Counted from the stretch's first letter, positions 1 through 62,416 are shown. The stretch: 64,000 nucleotides of DNA from Rotaria sordida (GCA_905250005.1 CAJNOH010000087.1:208393-272392); one strand, 5' to 3'. A program made the numbers and translations. The notes: a model not told the origin generated them from the sequence alone.

Positions 1-1969
1 AAATGTGTCGAAGTTAGATCATCATTTTGTTTATCAATTATGAATTTAATGTTCACAAAGTATCTATGAACAGAATATATTCGCAATGCAATACCAAAGT
101 TTACCATTTACCAAGGTCATTTCATAAATAATTATCATTTGTTAATTTGAAAAATTCATTATAGAGAAGAAAAACGCGAAGGATTCAACAGAGTTTTAAT
201 TATTAAAATGTAGATATTAAAAAAAAAAACTTTTTTCTTACTATTAAAAATGTGTACTTCTAGTTCAAGTATTACTTATGAGAGGCTATTGATTTTCTAG
301 AAAAATATTGGTAAAAATTATAGTAATTGTAAGAAGTCTCATTACCAAGTAAAAAGTACATAAACTTCAATCCTTTTGCTTGACAAACCTGATCACAAGC
401 AGAACAACCTGAGGTCGATAGATCTTAATGTAAAAAGATTTTCGATGAAAACACTGACATTTTCCCTAGGATCCTAATTTTTCACTATTTGAATGTGTTA
501 ACATTCATTCTCTCATTAACAAATATAAGTTCGCATGTCTATATTGTGTCACCTATAGAGTACTCAATCTACTGTAATCTCAAGGCGAGAGGAAACCTTC
601 CATTGTCTAGGACTGTCTCAGCATGGACGCTTTCTTCATCGATGGCTGCGATCGTAAAATTTTTCAAGAAAATTTGATTAGAATAGACTATTCATTGCAA
701 ATAGTTCCAAGGTGAATAGTTAAAATTAGCTGGAGATATCGATCACTTTTCGACAATTAGCATCAACTTTCCTGTGAAGATTATCCAAATAATATTTCAT
801 AGATCAGGCAAATTAAAATTGTTTGACATGAAATTTTTATTGTCGATAGAGGCAGTGCTAAACTGTCGAATGAAAGATCTAACGTGATGAGATTTGTTTT
901 CGATGGTGGGATATTCTTGTCTGAAGAAAAAAAATCTATGTTGACCTTCTAGCTCGTCTGTTTGAAGACCGATCAGAGTTCAACATACTCTATTTGTAGT
1001 CAAACTATGAGACTAAAGGATTAAACTTCAAGTGCTTTTTACCTGATAGCGAGACTTTTTGCGACTAATGTATCATTACTTCAAAATGAAAGGAAAATGA
1101 AAAATTTTTAAAAGTTCAGTCAAAAAACAATTCTTAAACTTGTGTGATTGAGACTTAGTTTTACTATATTTCCTATGCATTGACTACCAATCATACGGAA
1201 ACGAAACAGTGATTGAATTGTAATGAAGTACGAGCTAGAATTCGACTGATTCATAATTTCTAAGTGAATTCAGTAATATTTTTTTAGTTAATATGTGTGG
1301 CTTACTTCCTATGACTTGATTACACAGTAGAAAACATATGGATTGCTTTTTCCTGTTAGATATTTTATAGAAAAGGAATGAAACTTTACATTTCGTACTA
1401 TCTGTATTGATGCATGAGTTAAATTTTATTTTATCCATTCTCTTTTAAAGTCTCGTTAACAGATGTCAACACATATTTTTCTATATACACTTTTAGCTGA
1501 AATTTTCAAATCTTTCTCATAATCTCCTTTATGAATTTATATGCATCTTGATAATTAGAATCTTAATTTGTAGAATCGAAAATTTTAATTGAATATCTTC
1601 CCATATCTTTTTCTAAAATATTAATATCACTACTACAATAAACTGTACATTACCTATAAAAAAAAAAGAGATGTTTCTCTTATTTCGTTCAAAAGTGAAT
1701 CATTAAAATTTTGAATAGCGATACAATATAATACTCTTTATGACTGAAATCATTCACATAGATTTATTTTGAAAGAAATGCTCACAAAGGAACATGTACA
1801 ACTTTTTGTATACATATGTATTAATGTATATATTTGATAGACGAAAAGATTTAAAAACTAATATTATAGATTTTTGAAAACAAGTTAGTTAACAATAGAA
1901 CAGTTAATATAAAAATATAATCAATTAGTAATACATAAAAAAGAGAAAAATAGGGAAATATATTTTAAA

Positions 1970-4516
1970 TTACATGATATCACAAATAGCTGATGTTGGA
2001 TTCAATCGATCGTCAGTTTTATATGGTATGTAGATTTTTATTTCTTCGAGAAAAGTAAGATAATCCTTCAAACTAAGTGTTATCGTCAGTTGAGATCTAG
2101 CAATGTCCTCCTTTAGTGAAGAAAACATAGCTTGTTGGCTTGCTTGGCACATATCATAAACTTTATGCAATAACCGACCGTTCATTCCTTCGAAAGCTGG
2201 TAGAAAAATACTAAGTTCTTTATCAAGAAGAAAAGATTTGACATGATCTTTAGTCCACATATCGATACAATGTGGATATTCCCTACAATAAAAAAAACCA
2301 ATTGATTATAGTTTCATGTGATCTAATGTTGAAGTTTTCCTATAATAAGTAGAAGTGTCAGTTAATGCATAGATAGGCAACAATGGATAAAAACATACTG
2401 GTAAAACATTTTACAAAGACATTTTAAAAAATTATTCTGGTAATGGGGACTCAGCCGATTGCATTGTACGTTTAATAAGTGCCAGTACAAAAATTTCTGA
2501 GATTTATTGAATAGAAATCTCGGTGTCAATAAATGTGAATCTGAAGAATCGTTTTGTTATATTTCAGTTGACACAAATGTTACAATGGTAATGCTTTTTT
2601 TTTCATTTTCTAAGCATTGCTATGTCCTTAAAGTGTTTGTCGATGAAAAGTATAAGATAAAGTAAATTTACTAATTAAATTTCCATAATCACTAAACATC
2701 ACTATCTATACAAGTTATCAAGAAGAGTACCTCATGTCTAGAATAACAACTTTCACCCTCAAAAAAAAAAAGACTTACACAACTGGACGCGGTTCTTTAT
2801 TATTTTCAACGCTTGAATTTGTTTTTGGTGTACTATCCATTAACGAACTTGAATTGTGATGGACTTGATTTTGTTCGGCAAGTATTAAGTTTGAATTATT
2901 CATTCGAAATAGTCCTATCTGTTTCTTAAGTTCTTGATAAGCTTTATCGAAACCAAGTTTCGGAAAATCAATATAGATCAATGCTGATGTTAACACTCCA
3001 AGCCATCCATCAGCTTTGTAGCTAGTTGTCATAACTAATGGAATAATATGACATCGACGTTTAACTGCATAGCTAGCTTCCATTTCACAGAAAGGACTCT
3101 GTTTGTAAGCATCAGACATACAAACAAGTACAAATTCTGCATTTTCAATAGCTTTAGCCATAGCATCAAATGTAGCACCATGCATCAATCGAGAATCAAT
3201 CCAAACACATAATTGATCTTTCTCGAGAGAACTTAAAATACGATGACACAGTGTTTTATCACTATGTGAGTAACTTATCATGATATCATATTGTTTTTTA
3301 TCAATCATTAATGAAGAAATTGAAGAAGGTTGTTGTTGTTGTTGTTGAACTGTTTTGATTATTGTTTCTGGTTCTTTTTCTAATTTCCATATTAATGCAG
3401 TAGCTATTAGTTGTAGATCTTGTTGTGATGATGAAGTCAATGTTCGAATATGATTCATGAAAGTATCATTGTTTTTGAGAATAGTCGCAAATTCTTTGTT
3501 AAAGACTAATGCAAGAAGAATTTCAAGTGCAGGAAGTTTTGCTTTGAGTGGATTGAATTGATCTTCGAGAGCACATCGAAGAAAAAGAGAATGACCTTTT
3601 TGTTTGATTAATTCTTCTCGAATTTGATCATGTTGTGTTAATACTAAAGAGAAAAAAAATAAATGATTAGTTTCTGAATGAGTGTATTTATAAAAAAATA
3701 TTTTCTTAACTATTATTATTCCTTGGAAGAAGAAGACAACTAAAACTAACCTTTAAGACTTCGAAGACTATTGTGTAGGCGACCTTCTGTACGAATACCT
3801 CCATCAATAACATTTTTAATAAAAGTAATAAAAACCGTAGCGATTCTACTCGAATTTTGAAGTTGTTTTATATCTGCTTCTGCCATAATAACAGCCAGAA
3901 TTCGATAGGCATGTAAATGAATTTCATCATCATTATTTGATTTTCGTATAAGTACATTGATAAGATCGACTAATTGAAGACTTTTAAGATAAATAACAAG
4001 TTCACTATCCAGAGTAAAATAGAAGAGAATTTGAAGAAGTTGTTGAACAAGAGGTATACCAGCTGGATCTATTGTTACTTGATTTGATTCATTGACAGAC
4101 AGTAGAATACGTTTGATAGTATCAGAGATATGTCGACATGCATCACGTGTGCCGTCACTAGTTATTACATCGCCAAGATCCATTCGAAATAATAAGTTAG
4201 TTAGATGTAGTAAGATATTTATCATAGCTGAATTCCATTTGATATATGGTGGCCGACCAGTATAATTCTCACTAAGCCAACTATTGAACCATTTAAGATG
4301 AGTACGTCGAATTCGTTCAATTATCTCTTGACGTCGATTACCTTCATACCAGGCAATTTGATTTGGATAATGTTCAAGTACGGTAAGTTCTTCATATGAA
4401 CGAGAATTGGACTGTTCTTTAGCAATTTTTTCGAACATTTGTGTATATAAAGGAGAACAAACTTGATCAACAGATCTAGCCAACATATCTGTAAACTCTG
4501 TGTAGACATGTGACAT
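1970..4516 (-). CDS. SARM-like protein, copy A (about 647 aa): an N-terminal alpha-helical domain followed by a TIR domain and a C-terminal SAM domain. Exons 3751..4516, 2779..3643 and 1970..2282.
   Basis: ORFs 3746..4516, 2775..3458 and 1970..2260 sit on one strand. Exon 1 ends AAAG|GTTAGT (phase 1). The acceptor is ..ttctctttag at 3644-3649. The exon-2 reading frame is open upstream of its first Met, reading LTQHDQIREEL... The TIR motif is YDIMISYSHSDKTLCHRI...FVLVCMSDAYKQSPFCEMEASYA. A GTAAGT donor overlaps the TAA stop at 2773-2778. A poly-Y plus AG acceptor sits at 2283-2284, in phase with a SAM-like exon (YPHCIDMWTKDHVKSFLLDKEL...GMNGRLL). No homology search was possible. Confidence 0.7.
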
Positions 4517-5989
4517 TGTTAATAACGTTTATTAATTAAAAAAAAAAGTGTTTTAACGTGATGAAAAAAAATATGGAGTAATGTATTTTAAAAGGACATA
4601 TATGAAGTTAGATTTCTTTTCTTTTTCTTGACGACAAAGTCTATATTAGCAACATACAGAAAAAAAAAAGAAAATATTTCAACCATAATGGAACTTTTAA
4701 TGTGTCTTTCATGTTGATTCTTTTATAGAAGTTGTGAAATGACGGCAAGAAAAAAACAACTTCCCTATCAACCTTCGTACAGCGATGAATATAGAACGTA
4801 TAGAAAATAAGTAACTTTTTCTCTACAAAACAGAACAACACATTTACTATAAACAGGAGTAGATAGTTGATTCGAGTTCGAATATAACTGAAGATAAAAA
4901 AAAAACAAAGCATAAGTTAATCATCACGCTTAGCCAAAAATAACATTTAACAGCTGAAGTTTAATAATCAAAGCTATGATTCTCGTCCTCAAAATACTGG
5001 ATATAAAGTTCGACTTTACTGTTCAGATAGACGAGCATTGGTGGTAGCTTTATGGATGGCGATCGCTGTTCTTACACCATTAGTCTCGATTGTAGATGTT
5101 TCAATTATGTTCTTATGGTAAAATATATCTAATACACTTCATTGAAGTTCATCAAATATCCAAAATACTATTTAGAATCATGACAAGATTCGATGAATGT
5201 CATCAATATGCTTTTTCTCAATTCTCAGATTGTCCATTCGAGATATTTCGATACAAAGACTTCAATCTCACTTTTCTGGTACCTCACACAATGTGATACC
5301 CTCGTGTCTCCTTTGTGTAGTATCATCATTAATTTTCCTTTTTTTTTGCAGCTGTTTTATTGATTTTCAAGTCACATTCAGTTTATATTATAATTCATCC
5401 CAAGTTTATTTTTCAGAAGTGATATTTTGACTCTTAAATCTTCATTTATATTCGAACTCGTATATAGACAATTCATGATAACCATAGTTGATTACAATGT
5501 TGCTTTGTTTTGCTTCTAACAATAGGACAATTCGAAATATATATATCAGATTTTATCTAATGACGTGAATGAATATATCAATCAAATAAGTCTATTTCTA
5601 AAATAAAAATGAAGCATTACTTTCTATCTGTAATCTGATTGATAATTTATGTTTTTTACTCATAAAGTGAGCTATTGTAATCATTCAATAAAACATTGAC
5701 TTAAGAGGTTGGGATTACTATTTAGAATAGTACATTAATTTCTCTTTCATTAAAGCAACATTACTGTCTTAAGTTAAGAGAAGCAAAATTATTATATATT
5801 ATCAATGTGAGCTAATTTAAATTTCACCGTTCGAATTTTCCAGTGGTGATAGCATATTAAATTCATCTATTCGATCATATTCATGTATATTAGAGTAAAT
5901 TCTCTCTATAACAATGAAAAAAATATCTAACGACAAAACCTTTCTTGGTGTCAAATCGCTTTTCTACCGAGACTATGTTCATTTAATGA

Positions 5990-6400
5990 GTGCTAGAATG
6001 GTTTAGTTTTCTGGATCTTCGTTCTTGAGATACCGAAATTTTACTGGGTTTTTCAACAAACCAATTGTCGTTTTCGTCAAGTCATGTGAAAAATCAACTT
6101 TCGAGTTTCAACTTCCAACGTTGTACGAATAAAGTTCCTAATGGGATTAATTTATTGTGTAAGTTTTTCTTTTACACATGATGGAGAATATTGAATGTCT
6201 CAGAATAGAACACACTAGAAAAGTTACAATTTGCTCATTAAACAAATGTCATTAAGAATCTTGTTCGTGTCAAGTTTGAAGTCAAAACTCGAAAGTTAAT
6301 TGTCTACATGGTCTGAGGAAGACCACAGCTTTTTGTTGAACAACCTAGTAGAATTGTGATATCTGAAGAACAAAGGCCTGAGAAATCAAACCATTCGAGA
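5990..6400. mobile_element. MITE-like palindromic element of about 410 bp with long imperfect inverted arms.
   Basis: Left arm 5990-6120 and right arm 6265-6400 are reverse complements at about 85% identity. Compare GAATGGTTTAGTTTTCTGG..AAATTTTACTGGGTTTTTCAACAAA with the reverse complement of AAACCATTCGAG. Inner arms match too (AACTTTCGAGTTTCAACTTC versus GAAGTCAAAACTCGAAAGTT). No ORF. Confidence 0.5.
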
Positions 6401-7197
6401 CTTTTCTATTATTCACTAGTAGTCATTAAATGAATATCATCTCGATCGATAAGTGATTTGACACTTCAAGAAGGTCTCTCGTTTATTCATGAATATTTTC
6501 AGATAATTGTAAATACATGTTTTCACATGAAAATGAAAAACTTATCTGCATAATTGTTAACTTATTATTCAAAATGACATCATATTGGACTTGTGTTTTA
6601 GTGTTAGTTTTCTTTTATTACATTTTTAAAAGATCAAATAAAATGATTGATGATGAAGAAATGTATCTCCAAATAGATTGAATAAAACAATTTTCCTGTG
6701 ATGAGCGATAGCAGCTACATCATGTTTCATATTTTAATCCCATCGAAATTGCTCTAACAACTTTTTTTGCCATAAAAACAATTATTTTTTCGATTCATAT
6801 GGAATTTTCATCTACCATATTCTTTGTAACTAGCTTAAAAAACTACTAACAGTCATTCAACATGGTCTTTCGTTATTTTCTTTCTTCAACGATTATAAAA
6901 TATACAAAATTTTATCACTCATAAAAACTTACGTAGTAGTTTTGTTATTCAAAACGTTTAAATATCGTATATGTTCCATTGAAAAGCTAAAAACAATTTA
7001 TAATTACATCAATTTGTTCTATTTCATCTGTTTTCCTAATATCAAGCGGTCACGCAAATTAGATATAGGTAGTGCGGTTCTAATTTTACATATACATAAA
7101 TGAACATGAGTTGAGTAACAATAAAAGAATGAATAAAATTAAAATCTGTCACTGATGTATGCAAAGATGAATGATTTTTTACAAGAAATTTCATAAG

Positions 7198-9473
7198 TCA
7201 GATAAGATTACAAACAGTTGATATTGGATTCAATGAATTGTTAGCTGTGAATGGTATATAGATTTTAATTTCTTCGAGAAAAGTAAGATAGTCTTTTAAA
7301 CTGAGTATTGCATGTTGAGATCTATTAACGTCTTCTTTCAATGATAAAAACATTCCTTGTTGATTGGCTTGACACATGAAATAAGCTTGATGTAGTAATT
7401 TTCCGTTCATTCCGTCTAGGATAGGTAGAAAAGCATCAAGTTCTTTGTCAAGAAGAAACGATTTAACATGATCTTCAGTCCACATATCAATACAATGTGG
7501 GTATTTCCTACAAAAAAAAACAAAAAAAAAAGTTATTTACGTTGGCATTATTCGATCTATAGTTTTCTTATAAATTATACTTTAGATTTTTGATGAAAAT
7601 TGGAAGATAAAATAAATTTACTAATTTAATTTCAAAAATCACTAAACATCATTATCTATACAAGTTATCAAGAAGAGTACCTCATGTCTAGAATAACAAC
7701 TTTCACTCTCAAAAAAAAAAAAGACTTACAAAACTGAACATGGTTCTTCGTTATTTTCTTCACTTGGAACTATTTCCGATGTATTATCCACCAACGAACT
7801 TGAATTATGATGGACTTCATCTTGTTCAGCAAATGTTGAACTTGAATTATCAATTCGAAATAGTTCAATCTGTTTCTTAAGTTCTTGATAAGCTTTATCG
7901 AAACCAAGTTTCGGAAAATCAATATAGATCAATGCTGATGTTAACACTCCAAGCCATCCATCAGCTTTGTATTTAGGTGTCATGACTAATGAAATAATAT
8001 GGCATTGACATTTAACTGCATAACTTGCTTCCATTTCACATAAAGGATTCTGTTTGTAAGCATCAGACATACAAACAAGTACAAATTCTGCATTTTCAAT
8101 AGCTTTAGCCATAGCATCAAATGTAGCACCATGCATCAATCGAGAATCAATCCAAACACATAATTGATCTTTCTCGAGAGAACTTAAAATACGATGACAC
8201 AGTGTTTTATCACTATGTGAGTAACTTATCATGATATCATATTGTTTTTTATCAATCATTAATGAAGAAATTGAAGAAGGTTGTTGTTGTTGTTGTTGTT
8301 GTTGAACTGTTTTGATTATTGTTTCTGGTTCTTTTTCTAATTTCCATATTAATGCAGTAGCTATTAGTTGTAGATCTTGTTGTAATGATGAAGTCAATGT
8401 TCGAATATGATTCATGAAAGTATCATTGTTTTTGAGAATAGTCGCAAATTCTTTGTGAAAGACTAATGCAAGAAGAATTTCAAGTGCAGGAAGTTTTGCT
8501 TTGAGTGGATTGAATTGATCTTCAAGAGCACATCGAAGAAAAAGAGAATGACCTTCTTGTTTGATTAATTCTTCTCGAATTTGATCATGTTGTGTTAATA
8601 CTAAAGAGAAAAAAAAATAAATGATGAACTTCTGAATGAGTGTATTTATAAAATATATTTTCTTAACTATTATTATTCCTTGGAAGAAGAAGAAAACTAA
8701 AACTAACCTTTAAGACTTCGAAGACTATTGTGTAAACGAGCTACATAAGGAACACCACCATCAATAGCTTTCTTAATAAAAGTGATAAAAACAATAGTAA
8801 TTCTATTTGAAATTTGCAGTTGTTTTATATCTGCTTCTGTCATAATAACAGCCAGAATTCGATAGGCTTGTAAATGAATTTCATCATCATTATTTGATTT
8901 TCGTATAAGTACATTCATAAGATCGATTAATTGAAGACTTTTAAGATAAATAACAAGTTTACTATCCAAAGTAAAATAGAAAAGAATCAAAAGAAGTTCT
9001 CGAACAAGAGGTAGAACAGCTGGATCAATGGTTGTTGGATTCGATTTACTAATGTTCAATAAAATACGTTTGATAGTATTAGTGATTTGTTGAAACGCAT
9101 GACGTGTATCATTGCTAGTAATAACATCATCGAGATCCATTCGAAAGAATAAGTTAGTTGCATGCAACATAATATCATTCATAACTGAACTCCATTTAAT
9201 ATATGGTGGTAAACCAGTATATTGCTTACTTAACCAACTATTGAACCATTTAAGATGAGTACGTCGAATTCGTTCAATTATCTCTTCGCGTTTATTTCCT
9301 TTATACCATGTGATCTCATTTGGATAATACATGAGTATAGTACGTTGTTCATTTGAAAGATAATGAGGCTCTTCTCTGGCTACTTTTTGAAACATTTGTG
9401 TATATAAAGAAGAACAAACTTGATCAACCGCTCGAGCAATTTCAACTGTAAACGACGTAGAATTTACAGTCAT
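7198..9473 (-). CDS. SARM-like protein, copy B, the tandem paralog of copy A (helical domain, TIR, SAM). Exons 8708..9473, 7730..8600 and 7198..7507.
   Basis: Exon and intron architecture matches copy A. The donor is AAAG|GTTAGT at 8702-8707. The TIR exon is nearly identical to copy A at nucleotide level. A GTAAGT donor overlaps the stop at 7724-7729. The acceptor before YPHCIDMWTEDHVKSFL (SAM) is present. A (CAA)n polyQ tract codes 7 Q here versus 5 in copy A. Confidence 0.7.
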
Positions 9474-10380
9474 GGTTAACGCACAGTTTATGTCTTAAGA
9501 ATTGTTAAAATGTAATGTTGCAACGTCAAAAAGAAAAAGAAAAAGAAAATTCTTATTTTTCCCTTTGACGTTAATGCCAAGACGATGAAATAGAAAATCG
9601 ACAGAAAGAAAATATGAACGTATTATGCTAGAAGAGTTTCAGTAAAGATAGCATGTTAAACCCATCTTCAACAGTGTGTGTCACGCAGAAATTATGAGAT
9701 GATGTTAAGAAAAAAAACCTACGTATTTCTTTCATTACATTGAGTAGCAAAAAGCGCATTACAAGAAAAACAAAACAAAATTTTTTTTTCTGCAAGATAA
9801 CACGATGAAATTAGTTGTACAACAATTTACTCGTAACTGAAGTTAGTAGTCAATGAAGATCTTTTGAAAAATGAAAACATAAAAAAAGAATTCTTTACTT
9901 TATCAAAGTTATATCATTTTTGTTCCCCAATGATGTACGTGACTACTTTAATCAAGTGCAAACTTAACAGTTTTTATCTGTCAAATGCAATAGCAATGCC
10001 AAGTTACTTTTTTCTTTTTCTTTTTCCATTATAACAGTTGAACAAAACTCATCGAAGGAGTAATTATTATCTAACCATCCATGAAACACCTACTATCTAC
10101 GCAACTTCCTGATGCTTCTACTATATTTAAAACATCATTTACTTCTATTAAAGTATTAAAATAAGACAATTTGTCACAAACATTTATTCTAGAACTTCAA
10201 TGAAGTATATTGATAATTGATGGAAAAATGTTTAATTAAAGACTACTAGAATATTTAATAATCTTAAATATGATTAGTTTGTCTGTTATTTGAGCTAGTT
10301 TTCATAATAGAAAGTGCAAATATGAGTAATATTCTGGACTTTATTTAAAAAAAAAAATAACAAAAAAAAAAAAAGATTTT

Positions 10381-36450: not shown

Positions 36451-37097
36451 GCTCATTTTCGATTTGTCTTGCTGCTATTCACTTAATATCTGTTTTCTTT
36501 TTTTTAAATTATATTTTCAACGTTTATTATTATTAGTCTAATCATTGATTTAATGAACAGATAATCCTGTTGTACACATTCACTATATCTGCAGCAGATC
36601 TTAATAACATATTATGTATCTCGATGAACTCAGAAAGATTGAAATTAATTATTCCCGAAAGCTAGAATTTAATCGGTTCATCGACTCAAATCTACACTCA
36701 CTATTTGTTTTTTTGAAAATATATGTGGATTTCACAAAACCAACCAAGATGGTTATATTCTTTTAGTTTTTATACAAGACGATTTACTTAATTTTGTCTT
36801 TCTATTATGATAAAGATGTCGTTAGATGCATTTTAATGAATTGTATTGACTAGGACAACAAATTATTTCAAGTGTAGAAAACAATGAAATAAAATTTTCC
36901 ACCAATATAACTATCAATAAATGTGATATAAATGAAATGAATTTTGACTTTTGCTAGAACATATAAAAGTTCATGAGAGATTCCAGATTCTCCTCAAAAT
37001 ATGTCCTACACCAAGTTAAGTAGAATTTGAAAGCTCTTTATAAGTCTTTTGTTTTTTTAGAGAATGTAGGATTCATTTTAGATTTGGAATATCAGCA

Positions 37098-37984
37098 GTG
37101 TCACATATCTAGAATCTCGGGCATGCTGGAGAAGTGTAGGGAGATGCGAGAGAAGTGCATACTAGGGCGATGCAATAGAAATGTAGGGAAATGTGAGAGA
37201 AATGTGGGGAGATGTGAGAGAAGTGTAGGGAGATGTGAGAGAAGTGTGGGGAGGTGTGGGAGAAGTGTGGGGAGATGTGGGAGACGTGTGAGGAGATGTG
37301 AGAGAAATGTGGGGACATGTGGGAGAAGTGTAGAGAGATGTTGGAGAAGTGCGGGAGATGTGGGAGGGTGTGAGTGTGGGTGGGTGTGGGTATGGGTAAA
37401 TGTGGGTGTGGGTGGGTGTGGATGCGGGGTGTGTGGGTGTAGATGCGGGTGTGTGGGTGTGGGTATGGGTGAGTGTGGGTGTGGGTGGGTGTGGATGCGG
37501 GGTGTGTGGGTGTAGATGCGGGTGTGTGGGTGTGACTGTGGATAGAGTAAAGAAACACTCACACCCACATCCTCGCATCTCTAGGCATTTCTCTCACATC
37601 TCCTGCATACTTCTCCCGTATCTCCCGCACTTCTTCCACATCTATCCATACTTCTCTTGCATCTCCCCACATTTTTCCTACACCTTCAGACACTTCTCTT
37701 GCATCTCTCACACTTCTCCCGCATCTCTCCGCACTTCTCCCACATCTCCTCACACTTCCCCACATCTCTCCACACTTCTCTCGCATTTTCCTACACTTCT
37801 CGCACATCTCCCCACACTTCTTTCACATCTCCCCACACTTCTTTCACATCTCTCCACACTTCTCTCACATCTCCACGCACTTTTCTCGCGTCGCCCTACA
37901 CTTCTCTTGCATCTCCCTAGTATGCACTTCTCTCGCATCTCCCCACACTTCTCCAGCATGCCCGAGATTCTGGATATGTGACAC
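37098..37984. repeat. Palindromic minisatellite (21-bp units GGGAGATGTGAGAGAAGTGTR) whose inverted arms flank a G-rich telomere-like core.
   Basis: The left arm GTGTCACATATCTAGAATCTCGGGCATGCTGGAGAAG... at 37098- is the reverse complement of the right arm ending ...CTCCAGCATGCCCGAGATTCTGGATATGTGACAC at 37984. Between them lie tandem 21-mers. The overlapping 140-190 aa ORFs on both strands are artefacts of these repeats. Confidence 0.7.
37370..37540 (+). repeat. Interstitial tract of degenerate (TGTGGG)n-like repeats resembling a telomeric repeat.
   Basis: The tract reads GTGTGGGTGGGTGTGGGTATGGGT...GTGTGGGTGTGGGTGGGTGTGG and so on. The G-rich strand is on + only. A higher-order repeat of about 60 bp occurs twice. 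My recollection is that TGTGGG is the bdelloid rotifer telomere unit; this is unverified. Confidence 0.5.
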
Positions 37985-41300: not shown

Positions 41301-43513
41301 TTCATCTTCGAGCCCTTAAAACTTTCATTGACGATTTTGGTAAAAAACGTTTGAGTGGAGAAGAATGGCTTGCAACGCATATTGATACGGAAACACACAT
41401 CCTCAGTATATATGAAGAACTTGTTGCCGTTGTCGATGCAATCACACTCAATTCACGACAGTATTGTGTTATTCTCGATCCCGTTATCGATAGTAAACCA
41501 CAACTTGGAAGAAAGGTCGATATTTTATTAAGAGATAAATATAAGAAACTATGATTTAATTATTTTATTTAGAAAATGATCTTTGGTGAAATATCATTCT
41601 TTCTCCAACCGGGCGAAAAACTCTTGACAGGCATTCAAAATATTTTTATTTTGGATGAAGACGAAGGTGTTATTGTCAAATGTAATGAAACATTCGAAGA
41701 TGAACAAGCAAAGAAAATACGTACTCCGGGTGATCTATGGATGATTCGAGGACCAACGTAAGTTACTTTTTCTTTATTAAATAACATTTTGAATATGTAG
41801 CTATTTTATTTGAATTCTTAGTGAATATATTCCACCTACTCAAGTAGAAGTTGTCACTCGACGAAAGGCAATTCCATTAGATGAAAATGAAGGCATCTAT
41901 ATTCGTAATATCAAAAGTGGTCGTGTTCGAGCAGTCATCGGTGAAACTTACATGTTAACACAAGATGAAGAACTTTGGAATAAAGAATTATCCGAACAAA
42001 TCGAATATTTGCTTACGCGTGATCCATTAACCGAACGCTATTCTCTTATGCGTGAATCGGCTTCAGCCAAAAATGCATCGACAGCTACTGCCTTTAATAG
42101 TCAATCAAACAGTTCGAAATCAATTACTACCAAACGTGACAAATGGAAATTGATCACATATCGTGTTCCACATAATGCAGCCGTTCAAATCTATGATTAC
42201 AAACTAAAGAAAGCTCGCATTGTCTTCGGTCCAGAACTTGTCATGCTTGAACCTGATGAACATTTTAGTCTGATTTCTCTAAGTGGTGGCATACCCAAAT
42301 GTCCTAATCAAGTTAACTCCCTTTGTTTACTACTCGGTCCAAATTTCTTTACTGATATCATCGTCATTGAGACGGCCGATCATGCTCGTCTTTCCCTTCA
42401 ACTTGCTTATAGTAAGTCAAAAACACAGCAAAAACATTCAAAAATATACGTGATTGATTATTCTTTATTTTCCAGACTGGCACTTTGAAGTGAAAGACAT
42501 AAATGATAAGAGAGAAGCGGCTAAACTCTTTTCAGTGCCTGATTTTGTCGGGGATACATGCAAAGCTATTGCTTCACGTATTCGTGGTGCTGTAGCTGGT
42601 ACTCAATTTGATGATTTCCATAGGAACTCCGCTCACATCATTCGTGAATCTGTATTCGGTCTTGATGCAAATCAGTGTGTACGTGATCAAATTGTCTTTC
42701 CACAAAATAATCTTGTCATTACATCGATCGACATTCAAAGTGTTGAACCTGTCGATCAACGTACGCGTGATGCGCTACACAAGAGTGTGCAACTGGCCAT
42801 TGAGGTATGATATTGAATTGTTCGTCTCAATCGAAATGCAAGCAACACTTTCTATTTTAGATAACGACGAATTCACAAGAAGCTGCTGCTAAACATGAAG
42901 CTTCACGTCGCGAACAAGAAGCTAGAGGTTTTTTAGAACGACAACGTATCAAAAATGAAGCTGAAGCCGAACAGATTCGACAACTACTACTCGAATCACA
43001 AGCTCTATCGGCGGCAATCGAATTAACTGGTCAAACCAAAGCAGAAGCTATAAGTCGTGCTGAATCGAAGCGTATTGAAGGCGAAACAGCCGTTTACCAA
43101 GGTATATACTTTGTTACATTTAAATAATGAATACCTGAGCTTTTTTTTCTTGGTCCATTGCAGCGCGTCGTAAAGCTGAAGCAACCAAAATCGAAGCTGA
43201 AGCTGAATTGGCCCGTTTAAAATTAGTACGTGAAGCTGAAATCAAGTTTTTACGCGAACAAAACGAACTAGAAATTAAGAAAAAAGCCGAGTTGTCTCGA
43301 ATTGAAACTGAAAAATTCAAATTACAAGTCGAATCAATCGGTACTTCGACTATTCAAAGTATTGCTACATCAGGTCCCGAAACTCAAGTCAAACTTTTGC
43401 AAGCACTCGGAATACAATCGATGCTCGTCACCGATGGCAAAAATCCGATCAATCTCATGGACTTTGGACAAGGTCTACTCGGGAGTTTAACAGCTCGTCA
43501 TGTAATCAACTAA
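38310..43513 (+). CDS. MVP: Major vault protein, about 876 aa, 9 exons. Exon 3 is interrupted by a 2.1-kb foldback element.
   Basis: Colinear match to the MVP sequence I know: [25 protein letters not shown]..; [80 protein letters not shown]..; [14 protein letters not shown]; and the C-terminal coiled coil ..[28 protein letters not shown]. Exons: 38310..38503, 38563..38731, 38781..38961 joined to 41070..41194, 41249..41515 (weak G|GTCGAT donor), 41573..41757, 41822..42411, 42476..42804, 42861..43101 and 43164..43513. Confidence 0.9.
38962..41067. mobile_element. Non-autonomous long-inverted-repeat (foldback) element, Tc1/mariner-like, inserted in the MVP coding exon. It has TA target-site duplications and CAGT termini.
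   Basis: Arms of about 1 kb are near-perfect reverse complements. Identical small ORFs 39119..39325(+)/40704..40910(-) and 39550..39744(+)/40285..40479(-) arise from these arms. The termini are CAGTCAATGTCCCTAATAACAACAC...GTGTTATTATTAGGGACATTGACTG. TA occurs at 38960-61 and 41068-69. A subterminal motif TCCCTAATAACAACAC is repeated at least 4 times per arm. Removing the element while keeping one TA joins ..KATI to [14 protein letters not shown].. in frame, which aligns gap-free with MVP ..[18 protein letters not shown].. Confidence 0.8.
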
Positions 43514-59713: not shown

Positions 59714-62416
59714 CTACAGAATATTACATAAAGCAGATTCTTCTTTTAATCTTGATTGATTGACAAGTTTTTTCAAACCACTCAAAAATCGACTATATTC
59801 ATCGAGATGAAAAAGATCTTTTCCAATCTTATTTCTCAATCGATTATATTCTTCTTCAATACGTAATGGTGAATCAATAATTAATTGTCCATAAATAATA
59901 AGTTGAGATCCATCAATAAAATTCAATGCATTTAATAAATAATCAGATAAATGATTTTGTTGAAACCAATATTTTATGTCATTACGTGTCCATTGATCAG
60001 GTAATTTAGTTGATATTGTTTGGGCATCATTTAATGAAAGAATTGATGTAAATGATGATATTAAATTAGAAAATTGTTCTCTACTTACACAATGATCACG
60101 CATTCGATGTTCATATTCATCATATTGTGCATCATCATGTGATAATAACTTCATATATGTTAGTAAAGCTCGACCAGATGATAGTTGAAGAGTAGATGGT
60201 GGTAAATGAAGCCATTGTTGTACTTCTTCACAAGTCCATTGTTCGATTGGAGAAGTAGGTATAATGTCTGATACAGTAAGATTTGATTGTAATTGTATGT
60301 CAGAAATTTCTATAATTGGATTGGTGTTTACATGTAATGATGATGTTTCAATAGTTTGAATATTAGTAATTGTGTTTGAATCAATTTCTGATTTTGATTT
60401 AAGTTTTAAATGAGATCCATGTGAATAAGCAAGCTTGTTATTATTTTGTGGTACTTCATCTCGTACAGTAATTAAACCTAAAAGAGTTTCCATAACTTCT
60501 TCATCATTTTTCTCACCTCCAAAACGAACCCATGTTGCGGAACCAGCACGAATTTCAAACCAATCTTCTGGTATATAATCTTTTCCTATATAAACAGGTA
60601 CCATACGTTTGTTACGTTTATCAGCATGAACGACTTCCCTTCGACAGCTTTTTGAACCACAATAATTTTCTGTTACAATCATTACAATAACATTACATTG
60701 AGTTATTGCTTTAGCAATTTCTTCCCAATCATCTTCATATGGTGGTGATAATTTATTAAAATCTACCCAAATATCACCTTGATAATGTTCTTGAATTTTT
60801 GTAACAAGGTTTTTACAAAATTTGGCGTCTTTATGTGAATAAGAAATCATAACTTTTATTTGATTATCATCATCATCATCATGATTATGATTATCTTCAA
60901 TTGGTTGTATATCCATTTGTATACAATCAAGATTAAAAAGAATTCCTTTAGCTGCGCGTTTCATGTCTAATTCATATTCATCATTTGATTGATTTTTTGC
61001 TCTTTGTTCAACGAATGAAAGAAATTCATTATTTAATTTTAATTTAATAGAATATTCAGATAAAAAACTAATTGACCAAAATATTGTATAAAGTGATGAA
61101 CAAATAATTGTATTAAGTACTGTTGATTCACATATGTTATTAAATAAAAGAAATTTTTCAATAAATAATTCATATATATTGTCACGTGAAATAATATAAG
61201 TAAGCAATGCATCATTAACAACTAATTTAACTAGTCCCTCTAAATATTCACAAACATTATATGGACCACAGGTAAGATCAACAGAATCAAATGCTTTCAT
61301 TGTTTGTTCAAGAATATAATCAAGAATTGTTTGAATATTAGAGACACTTTCATTTTTTAATTCCTTCGGTTCCAATAATTTTGCATAAAGAAGATAATAA
61401 GCCATACGAATATCTTTATCGTCTTCGTTATAATCAATAACTGACGATTCGGATAAATATTGTTCTTTCCATTGCTTAATACTATCAATCATTTTTAATT
61501 CATTTAGTGCTTTTACACCAATGGGATGTCGAGCTAGATTATGTAATATATTAATAATGCAAGACCATGATTCAAGAGAAATATATTTTATATGATCTCG
61601 TTCAATTGATATCCATTGTAAAATAGCATTTGGATAACCAATTTGAACAAAATAGGGAACAAATCCATAGATATCTGTCATGTTAAGAATCCATTTAAAA
61701 ATTGATGTATAGACTTGAGATTGTTGATCATTATTTAAAAAATAATTATTTATATAAGTTATAAATGCTTGTAAAAGTCGTTCGGTTGAATTATTTAATT
61801 GAAAAAATGTTGGAATATTTTTATGTGAAACAAATATTGAATAAGAAATACCTCTTCTTGTATAAAGCGATCGTGCACCAATAGAAGCAAACAAATGAAG
61901 AAAATATTCATCCATATTTGATAGAATATGTTTTTTATTAATAAGATAATTAATTGTTGAATCATTAATTAAATAAGTAAGTGATAAATCAAAATAATAA
62001 TCACATAACACTGGATATATTGCCATATTTATATACATTTGAAAACGAATTGCATCGAATAGAGCTTCTAAGAGATTAGATGGAATTATTGAAGAATATC
62101 GTTTGATAAAATGAGAAAAGGAATTTATTTCAAAATAATTAAGAGTAGACATCCGTTTCTGATTTTCATCAATTGTTCTTATATCCCATTCATCATCGAT
62201 TTTTTGCAATTGATCACGAAGATTAATTAATGGATGAGACTCGATTTTCTTCAGCATATCATCGTGAAATAGAAGAGTTTCTAGTTGATGAATACAATTA
62301 AATATTGGATCGTTGTTAGTAGTCATACTGCTCGCACGAAAACAACAAATAATCAAGTGTACGTTTTTTGTCCTTCGTTTTTTTTTCTTTCTACAAATAT
62401 GAAAGGTATATTTCAT
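59714..62416 (-). CDS. SARM-like single-exon protein with an N-terminal alpha-helical (ARM/HEAT-like) region of about 500 aa, a TIR domain and two tandem SAM domains. The likely start is MTTNNDP near 62326.
   Basis: The TIR motif reads IKVMISYSHKDAKFCKNLVTKIQEHYQGDIWVDF..VIVMIVTENYCGSKSCRREVVHA..MVPVYI. SAM1 reads IEQWTCEEVQQWLHLPP..GRALLTYM. SAM2 reads DQWTRNDIKYWFQQNHLSDYLLNALNFIDGSQLI. The first 30 codons of the listed ORF (MKYTFHICRKKKKRRTK..) look like translated A-rich leader. Confidence 0.75.
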   Translation of the reverse strand: MKYTFHICRKKKKRRTKNVHLIICCFRASSMTTNNDPIFNCIHQLETLLFHDDMLKKIESHPLINLRDQLQKIDDEWDIRTIDENQKRMSTLNYFEINSFSHFIKRYSSIIPSNLLEALFDAIRFQMYINMAIYPVLCDYYFDLSLTYLINDSTINYLINKKHILSNMDEYFLHLFASIGARSLYTRRGISYSIFVSHKNIPTFFQLNNSTERLLQAFITYINNYFLNNDQQSQVYTSIFKWILNMTDIYGFVPYFVQIGYPNAILQWISIERDHIKYISLESWSCIINILHNLARHPIGVKALNELKMIDSIKQWKEQYLSESSVIDYNEDDKDIRMAYYLLYAKLLEPKELKNESVSNIQTILDYILEQTMKAFDSVDLTCGPYNVCEYLEGLVKLVVNDALLTYIISRDNIYELFIEKFLLFNNICESTVLNTIICSSLYTIFWSISFLSEYSIKLKLNNEFLSFVEQRAKNQSNDEYELDMKRAAKGILFNLDCIQMDIQPIEDNHNHDDDDDNQIKVMISYSHKDAKFCKNLVTKIQEHYQGDIWVDFNKLSPPYEDDWEEIAKAITQCNVIVMIVTENYCGSKSCRREVVHADKRNKRMVPVYIGKDYIPEDWFEIRAGSATWVRFGGEKNDEEVMETLLGLITVRDEVPQNNNKLAYSHGSHLKLKSKSEIDSNTITNIQTIETSSLHVNTNPIIEISDIQLQSNLTVSDIIPTSPIEQWTCEEVQQWLHLPPSTLQLSSGRALLTYMKLLSHDDAQYDEYEHRMRDHCVSREQFSNLISSFTSILSLNDAQTISTKLPDQWTRNDIKYWFQQNHLSDYLLNALNFIDGSQLIIYGQLIIDSPLRIEEEYNRLRNKIGKDLFHLDEYSRFLSGLKKLVNQSRLKEESALCNIL

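Follow-up and report, generated by a model that had tools for sequence, protein, structure and literature searches.

Does a stop codon that lies inside a splice donor make the last exon of a gene optional? Two tandem paralogues from Rotaria sordida raise this question. Both lie on the minus strand of the window, by which we mean the whole 64-kb stretch of DNA analyzed here, with copy A at positions 1970-4516 and copy B at 7198-9473. The window is eukaryotic and AT-rich (~30% GC), and R. sordida contig CAJNOL010000893.1 (GCA_905250125.1) matches it with 0 mismatches over 16,276 nt. Each copy comprises three exons, and a TPR-repeat gene is located upstream of the pair. The first-pass annotation had noticed that the TIR-encoding exon of both copies ends at a donor containing an in-frame TAA, and it interpreted this overlap as a special device that renders a following SAM-domain exon optional. 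The two genes are built as follows.

3751-4516, minus strand: copy A exon 1, with the ATG at 4516-4514, encoding the first part of the armadillo-repeat N-terminal domain.
3644-3750, minus strand: copy A intron 1, a phase-1 intron of 107 nt with a GTTAGT donor; if retained it would read GGT TAG, and it serves as an internal control.
2779-3643, minus strand: copy A exon 2, which encodes the end of the armadillo domain and, after a Q-rich linker, the TIR domain (aa 376-494), followed by a disordered linker.
2283-2778, minus strand: copy A intron 2, 496 nt, phase 2, GT..AG, with a T-rich tract before TGTAG.
2773-2778, minus strand: the GTAAGT donor of copy A intron 2, with the in-frame TAA at 2777-2775.
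1970-2282, minus strand: copy A exon 3, encoding the SAM-like C-terminal domain and tail, with the stop TAA at 1972-1970.
8708-9473, minus strand: copy B exon 1, for which the exact protein is public.
8601-8707, minus strand: copy B intron 1, likewise a phase-1 intron of 107 nt, with the donor GTTAGT and an immediate TAG on retention.
7730-8600, minus strand: copy B exon 2, with the TIR domain at aa 378-496 (Pfam TIR_2, E=9e-17).
7508-7729, minus strand: copy B intron 2, a phase-2 intron of 222 nt; its GTAAGT donor lies at 7729-7724 and the in-frame TAA at 7728-7726.
7198-7507, minus strand: copy B exon 3, encoding the SAM-like domain, with the stop at 7200-7198; the public 648-aa model uses the junction.

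The sequence-level description given in the first-pass annotation is accurate. Exon 2 of copy A ends in ...CCA GTT GT/GTAAGTC and that of copy B in ...TCA GTT TT/GTAAGTC (the slash marks the exon end), which places the TAA within a perfect GTAAGT donor in both. The polypyrimidine-AG acceptors described ahead of the SAM-like exon, ttttttttattgtag and tttttttttgtag, are each followed by G, and reading across the junctions confirms that the donor phase is 2 and that the acceptor side supplies 1 nt. Removal of intron 2 gives ...PRPVV-EYPHCIDMWTKDHVKSF... and yields open frames of 647 aa (copy A) and 648 aa (copy B). The predicted junctions, 2778^2283 and 7729^7508, are exact, and CAF0855538.1 (UniRef A0A814YNR7) is identical to the protein that spliced copy B encodes, meaning that the copy B intron 2 junction is already annotated publicly. 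An unspliced mRNA would indeed end translation after the TIR exon, as had been proposed; with intron 2 retained, the frame of either copy closes after one extra codon. Intron 2 itself is unremarkable, a U2-type GT-AG intron of phase 2 at the boundary between the disordered linker and the SAM-like domain. Its splice sites are strong in both copies, combining the perfect donor with a T8-T10 tract before (T)GTAG.

The encoded proteins have the domain order armadillo-TIR-SAM-like. The TIR domain of copy A is detected by Pfam TIR_2 at aa 376-494 (E=1e-19), and the armadillo and TIR folds are both supported. In an AlphaFold model of P0003, an allele of copy B (pLDDT 82), residues 1-347 form an all-helical repeat domain, which a disordered Q-rich linker joins to the TIR domain (373-505); a further disordered linker (506-542) leads to a small helical bundle at ~545-625, making five segments in all. 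The SAM domain assigned to the last exon by the first-pass annotation holds at the level of fold, as this C-terminal domain folds into a compact bundle of helices that can be superposed on solved SAM structures, with those of SARM1 among its structural matches. At the level of sequence the assignment finds no counterpart: exon 3 alone gave no Pfam match at E<=10 to SAM_1, SAM_2 or SAM_PNT, phmmer against PDB sequences returned no SAM match, and a 20-sequence family profile searched against PDB sequences likewise returned no SAM, its best matches being S100 and nsp12 noise. The SAM-like domain is thus a divergent one that sequence profiles miss. Within the TIR domain, 31 family members share an invariant Glu in a C-E-M-E motif (E443 in P0003), which lines up with the wC..E motif of the Cat1 TIR. 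This residue may correspond to the TIR catalytic Glu, and its invariance is consistent with an NADase-type catalytic residue.

The overlap between stop and donor requires no special explanation. When an exon ends after codon position 2 and is followed by the consensus donor, read G/TAA/GT, the result is always NNG TAA; more generally, any phase-2 donor of the form GT(A/G)A puts a TAA or TGA one codon past the exon. In-frame stops arising from the 5' splice-site consensus, through GTGAGT and GTAAGT in phase-2 introns, have been described genome-wide in Yarrowia lipolytica (PMC2911113). Two internal comparisons behave in the same way. Intron 1 of copies A and B, with its phase-1 GTTAGT donor, reads GGT TAG and likewise produces an immediate stop, at a place where no domain switch would be proposed. 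The second is an intron of an unrelated gene in the window:

41758-41821, plus strand: control intron in a major vault protein gene, 64 nt, phase 2, donor GTAAGT, in-frame TAA at 41759-41761.

This intron was validated by a Pfam Vault repeat (aa 25-67, covering profile positions 1-42 of 42) that spans the inferred junction at aa 62/63. Donor statistics were taken from an annotation-free count of the ends of long ORFs in the window together with this one Pfam-validated control; a heuristic that joins ORFs was avoided, as it would favor donors near a stop. A stop inside GT[AG]AG also closes four more ORFs in the window, each at least 60 codons long, and these are not confirmed introns. Since the overlap follows automatically from phase and donor consensus, it is unfit as evidence of regulation, here or in other sequences, and the reading of it as a special device is not supported. 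The TAA embedded in the intron 2 donor would have no designed role.

To place the introns in a family context, eleven related gene models were mapped exactly onto genomic loci, and 12 loci were compared. Intron 1 keeps its position and phase in all 12, and 10 of the 11 other family loci share the position and phase of copy A intron 2. Besides copies A and B, nine loci keep intron 2, including the distant paralogues L010 and L011. Both introns are old in the family, since neither position nor phase has shifted even in these ~35-40% identical paralogues. The sequence of the intron 2 donor is more variable than its position. In copies A and B and seven other loci, a phase-2 GTAAG gives TAA, and in L011 a phase-2 GTGAGT gives TGA, such that 10 of the 11 loci with intron 2 carry a donor stop. 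The remaining locus, the Adineta vaga paralogue L010, has a GTATGT donor and an intron of 63 nt (3n) with no in-frame stop. Among the phase-1 donors of intron 1, GTTAG gives TAG, and GTAAG or GTGAG gives no stop, leaving 5 of 12 stop-free. Across the 12 loci, donor sequence and phase together account for every presence or absence of a donor stop.

Three relatives bear directly on whether a TIR-only product is needed. The A. vaga orthologue (P0014, locus L001) has lost intron 2, leaving its TIR and SAM-like domains on a single exon. The L010 intron, being 3n and stop-free, would still give a TIR-SAM protein if retained. The third is a distant member of the family found in the window itself:

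59714-62416, minus strand: third, distant family member, one uninterrupted 900-codon ORF in which no intron separates the TIR from the SAM-like part.

In this third paralogue the N-terminus is helical, the TIR domain spans aa 522-645, the SAM-like domain covers aa 807-887, and there may be a second SAM-like domain near aa 722. From these gene structures, the fused TIR-SAM-like protein would be obligatory in all three relatives. With intron 2 either absent or stop-free in such members, a TIR-only form made by retention is dispensable for the family. Conservation of the overlap, which the first-pass annotation had proposed to compare across orthologues, breaks down in these three relatives. Where intron 2 is present its length also differs, with 218-618 nt in Rotaria versus 48-63 nt in Adineta (48 nt in A. 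steineri, 61 nt in A. ricciae). Orthologues that are full length continue across the intron 2 junction, and the C-terminal domain follows directly after the TIR in 51 of 100 retrieved family proteins. The family is strongly expanded in bdelloids; outside this group its homologues come from molluscs, a tunicate, a coral and an echinoderm and have an ARM-TIR architecture.

The first-pass annotation had further argued that conservation of the arrangement in two diverged copies indicates function. The divergence between copies A and B is, in fact, highly uneven. Synonymous divergence is high in the N-terminal third (dS 0.61), falls to 0.06-0.08 in the gene center (aa 171-494), where nucleotide identity is mostly 96-100%, and rises again in the linker codons (dS 0.40) and the SAM-like exon (dS 1.19). 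The central tract includes intron 1, which is 95% identical between the copies, and identity over the opening ~130 nt of intron 2 is about 91-95%. This pattern suggests an old duplication followed by gene conversion that homogenized parts of both copies, non-coding sequence included; the ~95% identity at the start of intron 2 may be attributed to a patchy conversion tract. Because conversion has acted between the copies, which are 95-100% identical across the gene center with introns included, their identical donors are not independent evidence of selection, and the argument from paralogue agreement lapses. For exon 3, the dN/dS of 0.11 between the copies points clearly to strong purifying selection, as would befit a constrained coding exon of the gene.

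Signals that would accompany a regulated switch were sought in and around intron 2. Regulated intron retention usually goes with weak splice sites. Counts of AATAAA and ATTAAA in intron 2 equal chance expectation, no hexamer position is shared between copies A and B, and six of the 11 introns lack these hexamers altogether; an intronic poly(A) signal was rejected on the grounds of these chance-level counts and varying positions. The first ~130 nt of intron 2 can be aligned across Rotaria loci (z 6-25), and intron 1 cannot. Identity in this 5' part, however, is 0.58-0.69 between Rotaria loci compared with 0.70-0.80 at 4-fold sites (dS about 0.5), and a constrained element was therefore rejected. 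An Rfam scan of positions 1900-9600 at E<=1 placed nothing in intron 2. Its only matches were two sub-threshold snoRNA-like matches (ceN69, 25.6 bits versus a gathering score of 45), both within coding exon 2, and an intron-encoded RNA was rejected for this reason.

Given these results, we consider it highly probable that intron 2 is an ordinary, constitutively removed intron, that the gene makes the full armadillo-TIR-SAM-like product, and that the donor TAA is without designed role. On this account the full-length protein would be the functional product. By analogy with SARM1, the SAM-like domain would probably oligomerize the protein such that the TIR domains assemble, and the armadillo domain would probably regulate that assembly. 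The TIR domains of armadillo-TIR-SAM-like proteins may be enzymatically active.

The alternative that fares best builds on the one put forward in the first-pass annotation and has intron 2 under regulation. Retention, or polyadenylation within the intron, would use the donor TAA to give an armadillo-TIR protein that lacks the SAM-like domain, splicing would give an oligomerizable TIR-SAM protein, and the choice would act as a switch for TIR assembly resembling the truncated isoforms of the plant genes RPS4 and N. Several observations fit this scheme. The stop falls directly after the TIR domain and linker in copies A and B, most intron-bearing loci have such a stop (10 of 11), the Rotaria introns are long with an alignable 5' part, and plant TIR-NLR genes need intron-retaining transcripts for full resistance (PMC4100160). 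Moreover, intron 2 is the last intron, and a retained transcript need not be a target of exon-junction-dependent NMD, which would spare it and in principle allow translation into an armadillo-TIR protein. Against the scheme stand findings already described: the stop is a by-product shared with the intron 1 and vault controls, the intron is lost, stop-free or absent in three relatives and only 48-63 nt long in Adineta, the 5' part is no better conserved than synonymous sites, and gene conversion accounts for what the paralogues have in common here. With strong splice sites and no conserved poly(A) signal in addition, the switch is left unsupported and we regard it as unlikely. A biologically meaningful TIR-only isoform is likewise unlikely. 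It is doubtful even for Rotaria, with its introns of 218-618 nt, that some transcripts retain intron 2 or polyadenylate within it to give an armadillo-TIR protein devoid of the SAM-like domain; we rate this as quite improbable. Were it true, the armadillo-TIR form could modulate SARM1-like assembly of the full-length protein as a dominant-negative or a primer, and it would constitute an animal counterpart of the truncated plant RPS4/N isoforms within a bdelloid-specific expansion of permuted ARM-TIR-SAM proteins.

Alternatively, the immediate stop might be selected as a generic fail-safe for quality control and not as an isoform switch: on a splicing failure, translation would halt immediately, and the transcript would be cleared or its product would do no harm. 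Genome-wide analyses have argued that donor, branch-point and acceptor consensus sequences supply in-frame stops that favor NMD of unspliced transcripts (PMC2911113), and 10 of 11 phase-2 donors in this family give a stop. Such selection, however, is inseparable from pressure on the donor simply to pair with U1. An intron that is 3n and stop-free is tolerated in L010, five of the 12 intron 1 donors are stop-free, and exon-junction-dependent NMD would not apply to the last intron in any case. We view a selected fail-safe as very improbable.

The public copy A model is a 534-aa protein that runs from Met11 (window position 4486) to the donor TAA at 2777-2775, leaving exon 3 intact and in no public gene model. 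A second R. sordida assembly is alike, with a 546-aa model (P0001) and an intact exon 3 located 495 nt downstream, and P0007 and P0010 from other Rotaria assemblies also end at '...PVV'. Exact copy-A proteins, either spliced or unspliced, were absent from the protein collection searched. That copy A is truly a TIR-only gene ending at 2775, as the models from two assemblies and the missing exon 3 gene call would have it, with the SAM-like exon a separate gene or a decaying remnant, is scarcely credible: exon 3 is intact in both assemblies under a dN/dS of 0.11, is preceded by a strong acceptor in matching phase, and has invariant Y-P residues upstream of its only early Met, no in-frame ATG occurs between the upstream stop and the acceptor (which argues against a stand-alone SAM gene), and the identically organized copy B is modeled as spliced in the same annotation, with orthologues full length. 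The TIR-only public models (copy A, P0001, P0007 and P0010) are probably gene-finder truncations at the first in-frame stop.

Copy A should be corrected to a three-exon gene comprising 4516-3751, 3643-2779 and 2282-1970. The R. sordida annotation currently cuts it at the donor TAA and leaves a conserved exon that is under selection unannotated, and related Rotaria loci are treated likewise. More broadly, at least 50 bdelloid entries named 'TIR domain-containing proteins' include a SAM-like domain that goes undetected by sequence profiles. A literature search on bdelloid TIR or SARM1-like genes found nothing specific. The ARM-TIR-SAM arrangement, as a permuted relative of SARM1, may interest those who work on animal TIR NADase immunity.

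Compared with known systems, the splicing of copies A and B is generic. The phase-2 GTRAGT introns described previously (PMC2911113) have the same GT-AG borders, the same GTAAGT donor and the same NNG TAA read-through, and nothing sets copies A and B apart from them; the rotifer introns are particular only in lying at a domain boundary and in being the last of the gene.

The domain architecture is more distinctive. The SAM domains of SARM1 form a ring that scaffolds its TIR domains. As outlined in PMC7688312, the ARM domain of SARM1 keeps the TIR domains inhibited within an octameric ring. SARM1 and C. elegans TIR-1 are NAD+ hydrolases of the order ARM-SAM-SAM-TIR, whereas copies A and B are ARM-TIR-SAM proteins with a single SAM-like domain, their segments running from ARM (1-347) through TIR (373-505) to the SAM-like bundle (545-625). 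SARM1 and TIR-1 are single-copy, in contrast to the strongly expanded bdelloid family. A phmmer search against PDB sequences did not return SARM1, with bacterial Cat1 TIR as the only match (E 1.6e-4). Considering this result, the permuted order and the lack of a SAM profile match, the rotifer family is not an orthologue of SARM1.

The plant TIR-NLR genes RPS4, N and RCT1 offer the closest parallel for the retained transcript, as their intron-retaining transcripts encode truncated TIR-containing proteins that are needed for full resistance (PMC4100160). Copies A and B are likewise TIR-containing genes of an immune type, and retention in them would shorten the protein with its TIR domain preserved. 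In the plant genes, the alternative transcripts have been observed and genetically shown to matter, whereas those of copies A and B are hypothetical. The loss of the intron in one relative, its stop-free form in another and the existence of intronless paralogues argue that the truncated form is not required in this family.

Public R. sordida annotations from two assemblies cut off the copy A models, at 534 and 546 aa, at the TAA within the intron-2 donor. The SAM-like exon of this copy is intact and under selection, yet appears in no public model from either assembly. For the adjoining copy B, the public model is spliced; models P0007 and P0010, from other Rotaria assemblies, end in "...PVV", as do the truncated copy A models. 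The truncated models and the annotation gap are located as follows:

Window 1970-2282 and 2775-4486, minus strand: copy A, annotation gap/truncation.
L009 (locus in the second R. sordida assembly), 6001-7747 and 8241 onward: copy A, annotation gap/truncation.

An independent control for a donor with an in-frame stop was available in the window, where a Pfam Vault repeat extends across the splice junction and so validates it:

Window 41758-41821, plus strand: intron of 64 nt in the major vault protein gene; phase 2, donor GTAAGT, TAA in frame.

In Adineta vaga, intron 2 has been lost from the orthologue (L001:1501-3469), and in a paralogue (L010:501-3015) it measures 63 nt (3n), has GTATGT as its donor and contains no in-frame stop. 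Its length is 218-618 nt in Rotaria versus 48-63 nt in Adineta.

The tandem paralogues were compared along their length:

Window 1970-4516, minus strand: copy A.
Window 7198-9473, minus strand: copy B.

Synonymous divergence (dS) between the copies starts at 0.61 for the N-terminal third, drops to 0.06-0.08 for the central part (within which intron 1 is 95% identical), and is 0.40 in the linker and 1.19 in the SAM-like exon. Intron 2 is about 95% identical over its first 130 nt. This mosaic divergence shows that the duplication is old and that gene conversion has since acted on it in patches. A gene of another species resembles both copies in part:

L008:1501-4259, Rotaria sp. Silwood2: gene encoding P0002.

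The N-terminus of P0002, judged by eye, resembles copy B, whereas its exon 3 and the 3' part of intron 2 resemble copy A, with a SAM-exon dS of 0.30 to copy A compared with the 1.19 separating A from B. This combination suggests that the tandem paralogues have recombined or undergone conversion in Rotaria sp. Silwood2.

Other features of the window include weak Rfam matches and a further family member:

Window 3191-3287 and 8142-8238, minus strand: ceN69-like (C/D-box snoRNA family) matches within coding exon 2 of both copies.
Window 59714-62416, minus strand: distant third paralogue, one uninterrupted 900-codon ORF.

The ceN69 matches fall below threshold, scoring 25.6 bits where the gathering score is 45 (E 0.13), and are almost certainly due to chance, duplicated along with the gene. 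The third paralogue encodes a helical N-terminus followed by a TIR domain (aa 522-645) and a clear SAM-like domain (aa 807-887), with a possible, weaker second SAM-like domain near aa 722; it would be an intronless ARM-TIR-SAM(-SAM) gene. Separately, overlapping ORFs of 138-193 codons cluster on both strands at 37027-37981, the GC-richest part of the window (about 0.40 versus about 0.30 elsewhere).

The TIR domain contains a conserved motif:

Copy A aa ~438-441: C-E-M-E motif (E443 in P0003, the copy-B allele).

The Glu of this C-x-x-E motif is invariant among 31 members of the family. It lines up with the wC..E motif in the TIR of bacterial Cat1, and both observations are consistent with a candidate NADase-type catalytic Glu.

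Across the family (P0002-P0088), a SAM-like domain comes after the TIR in 51 of the 100 bdelloid "TIR domain-containing proteins" retrieved, and both window copies carry it in exon 3. It goes undetected in Pfam and PDB sequence searches, and its profile had no match in the retrieved non-bdelloid homologues (mollusc, tunicate, coral, and echinoderm). Relative to SARM1, in which the order is ARM-SAM-SAM-TIR, the proteins with this domain are permuted to ARM-TIR-SAM.
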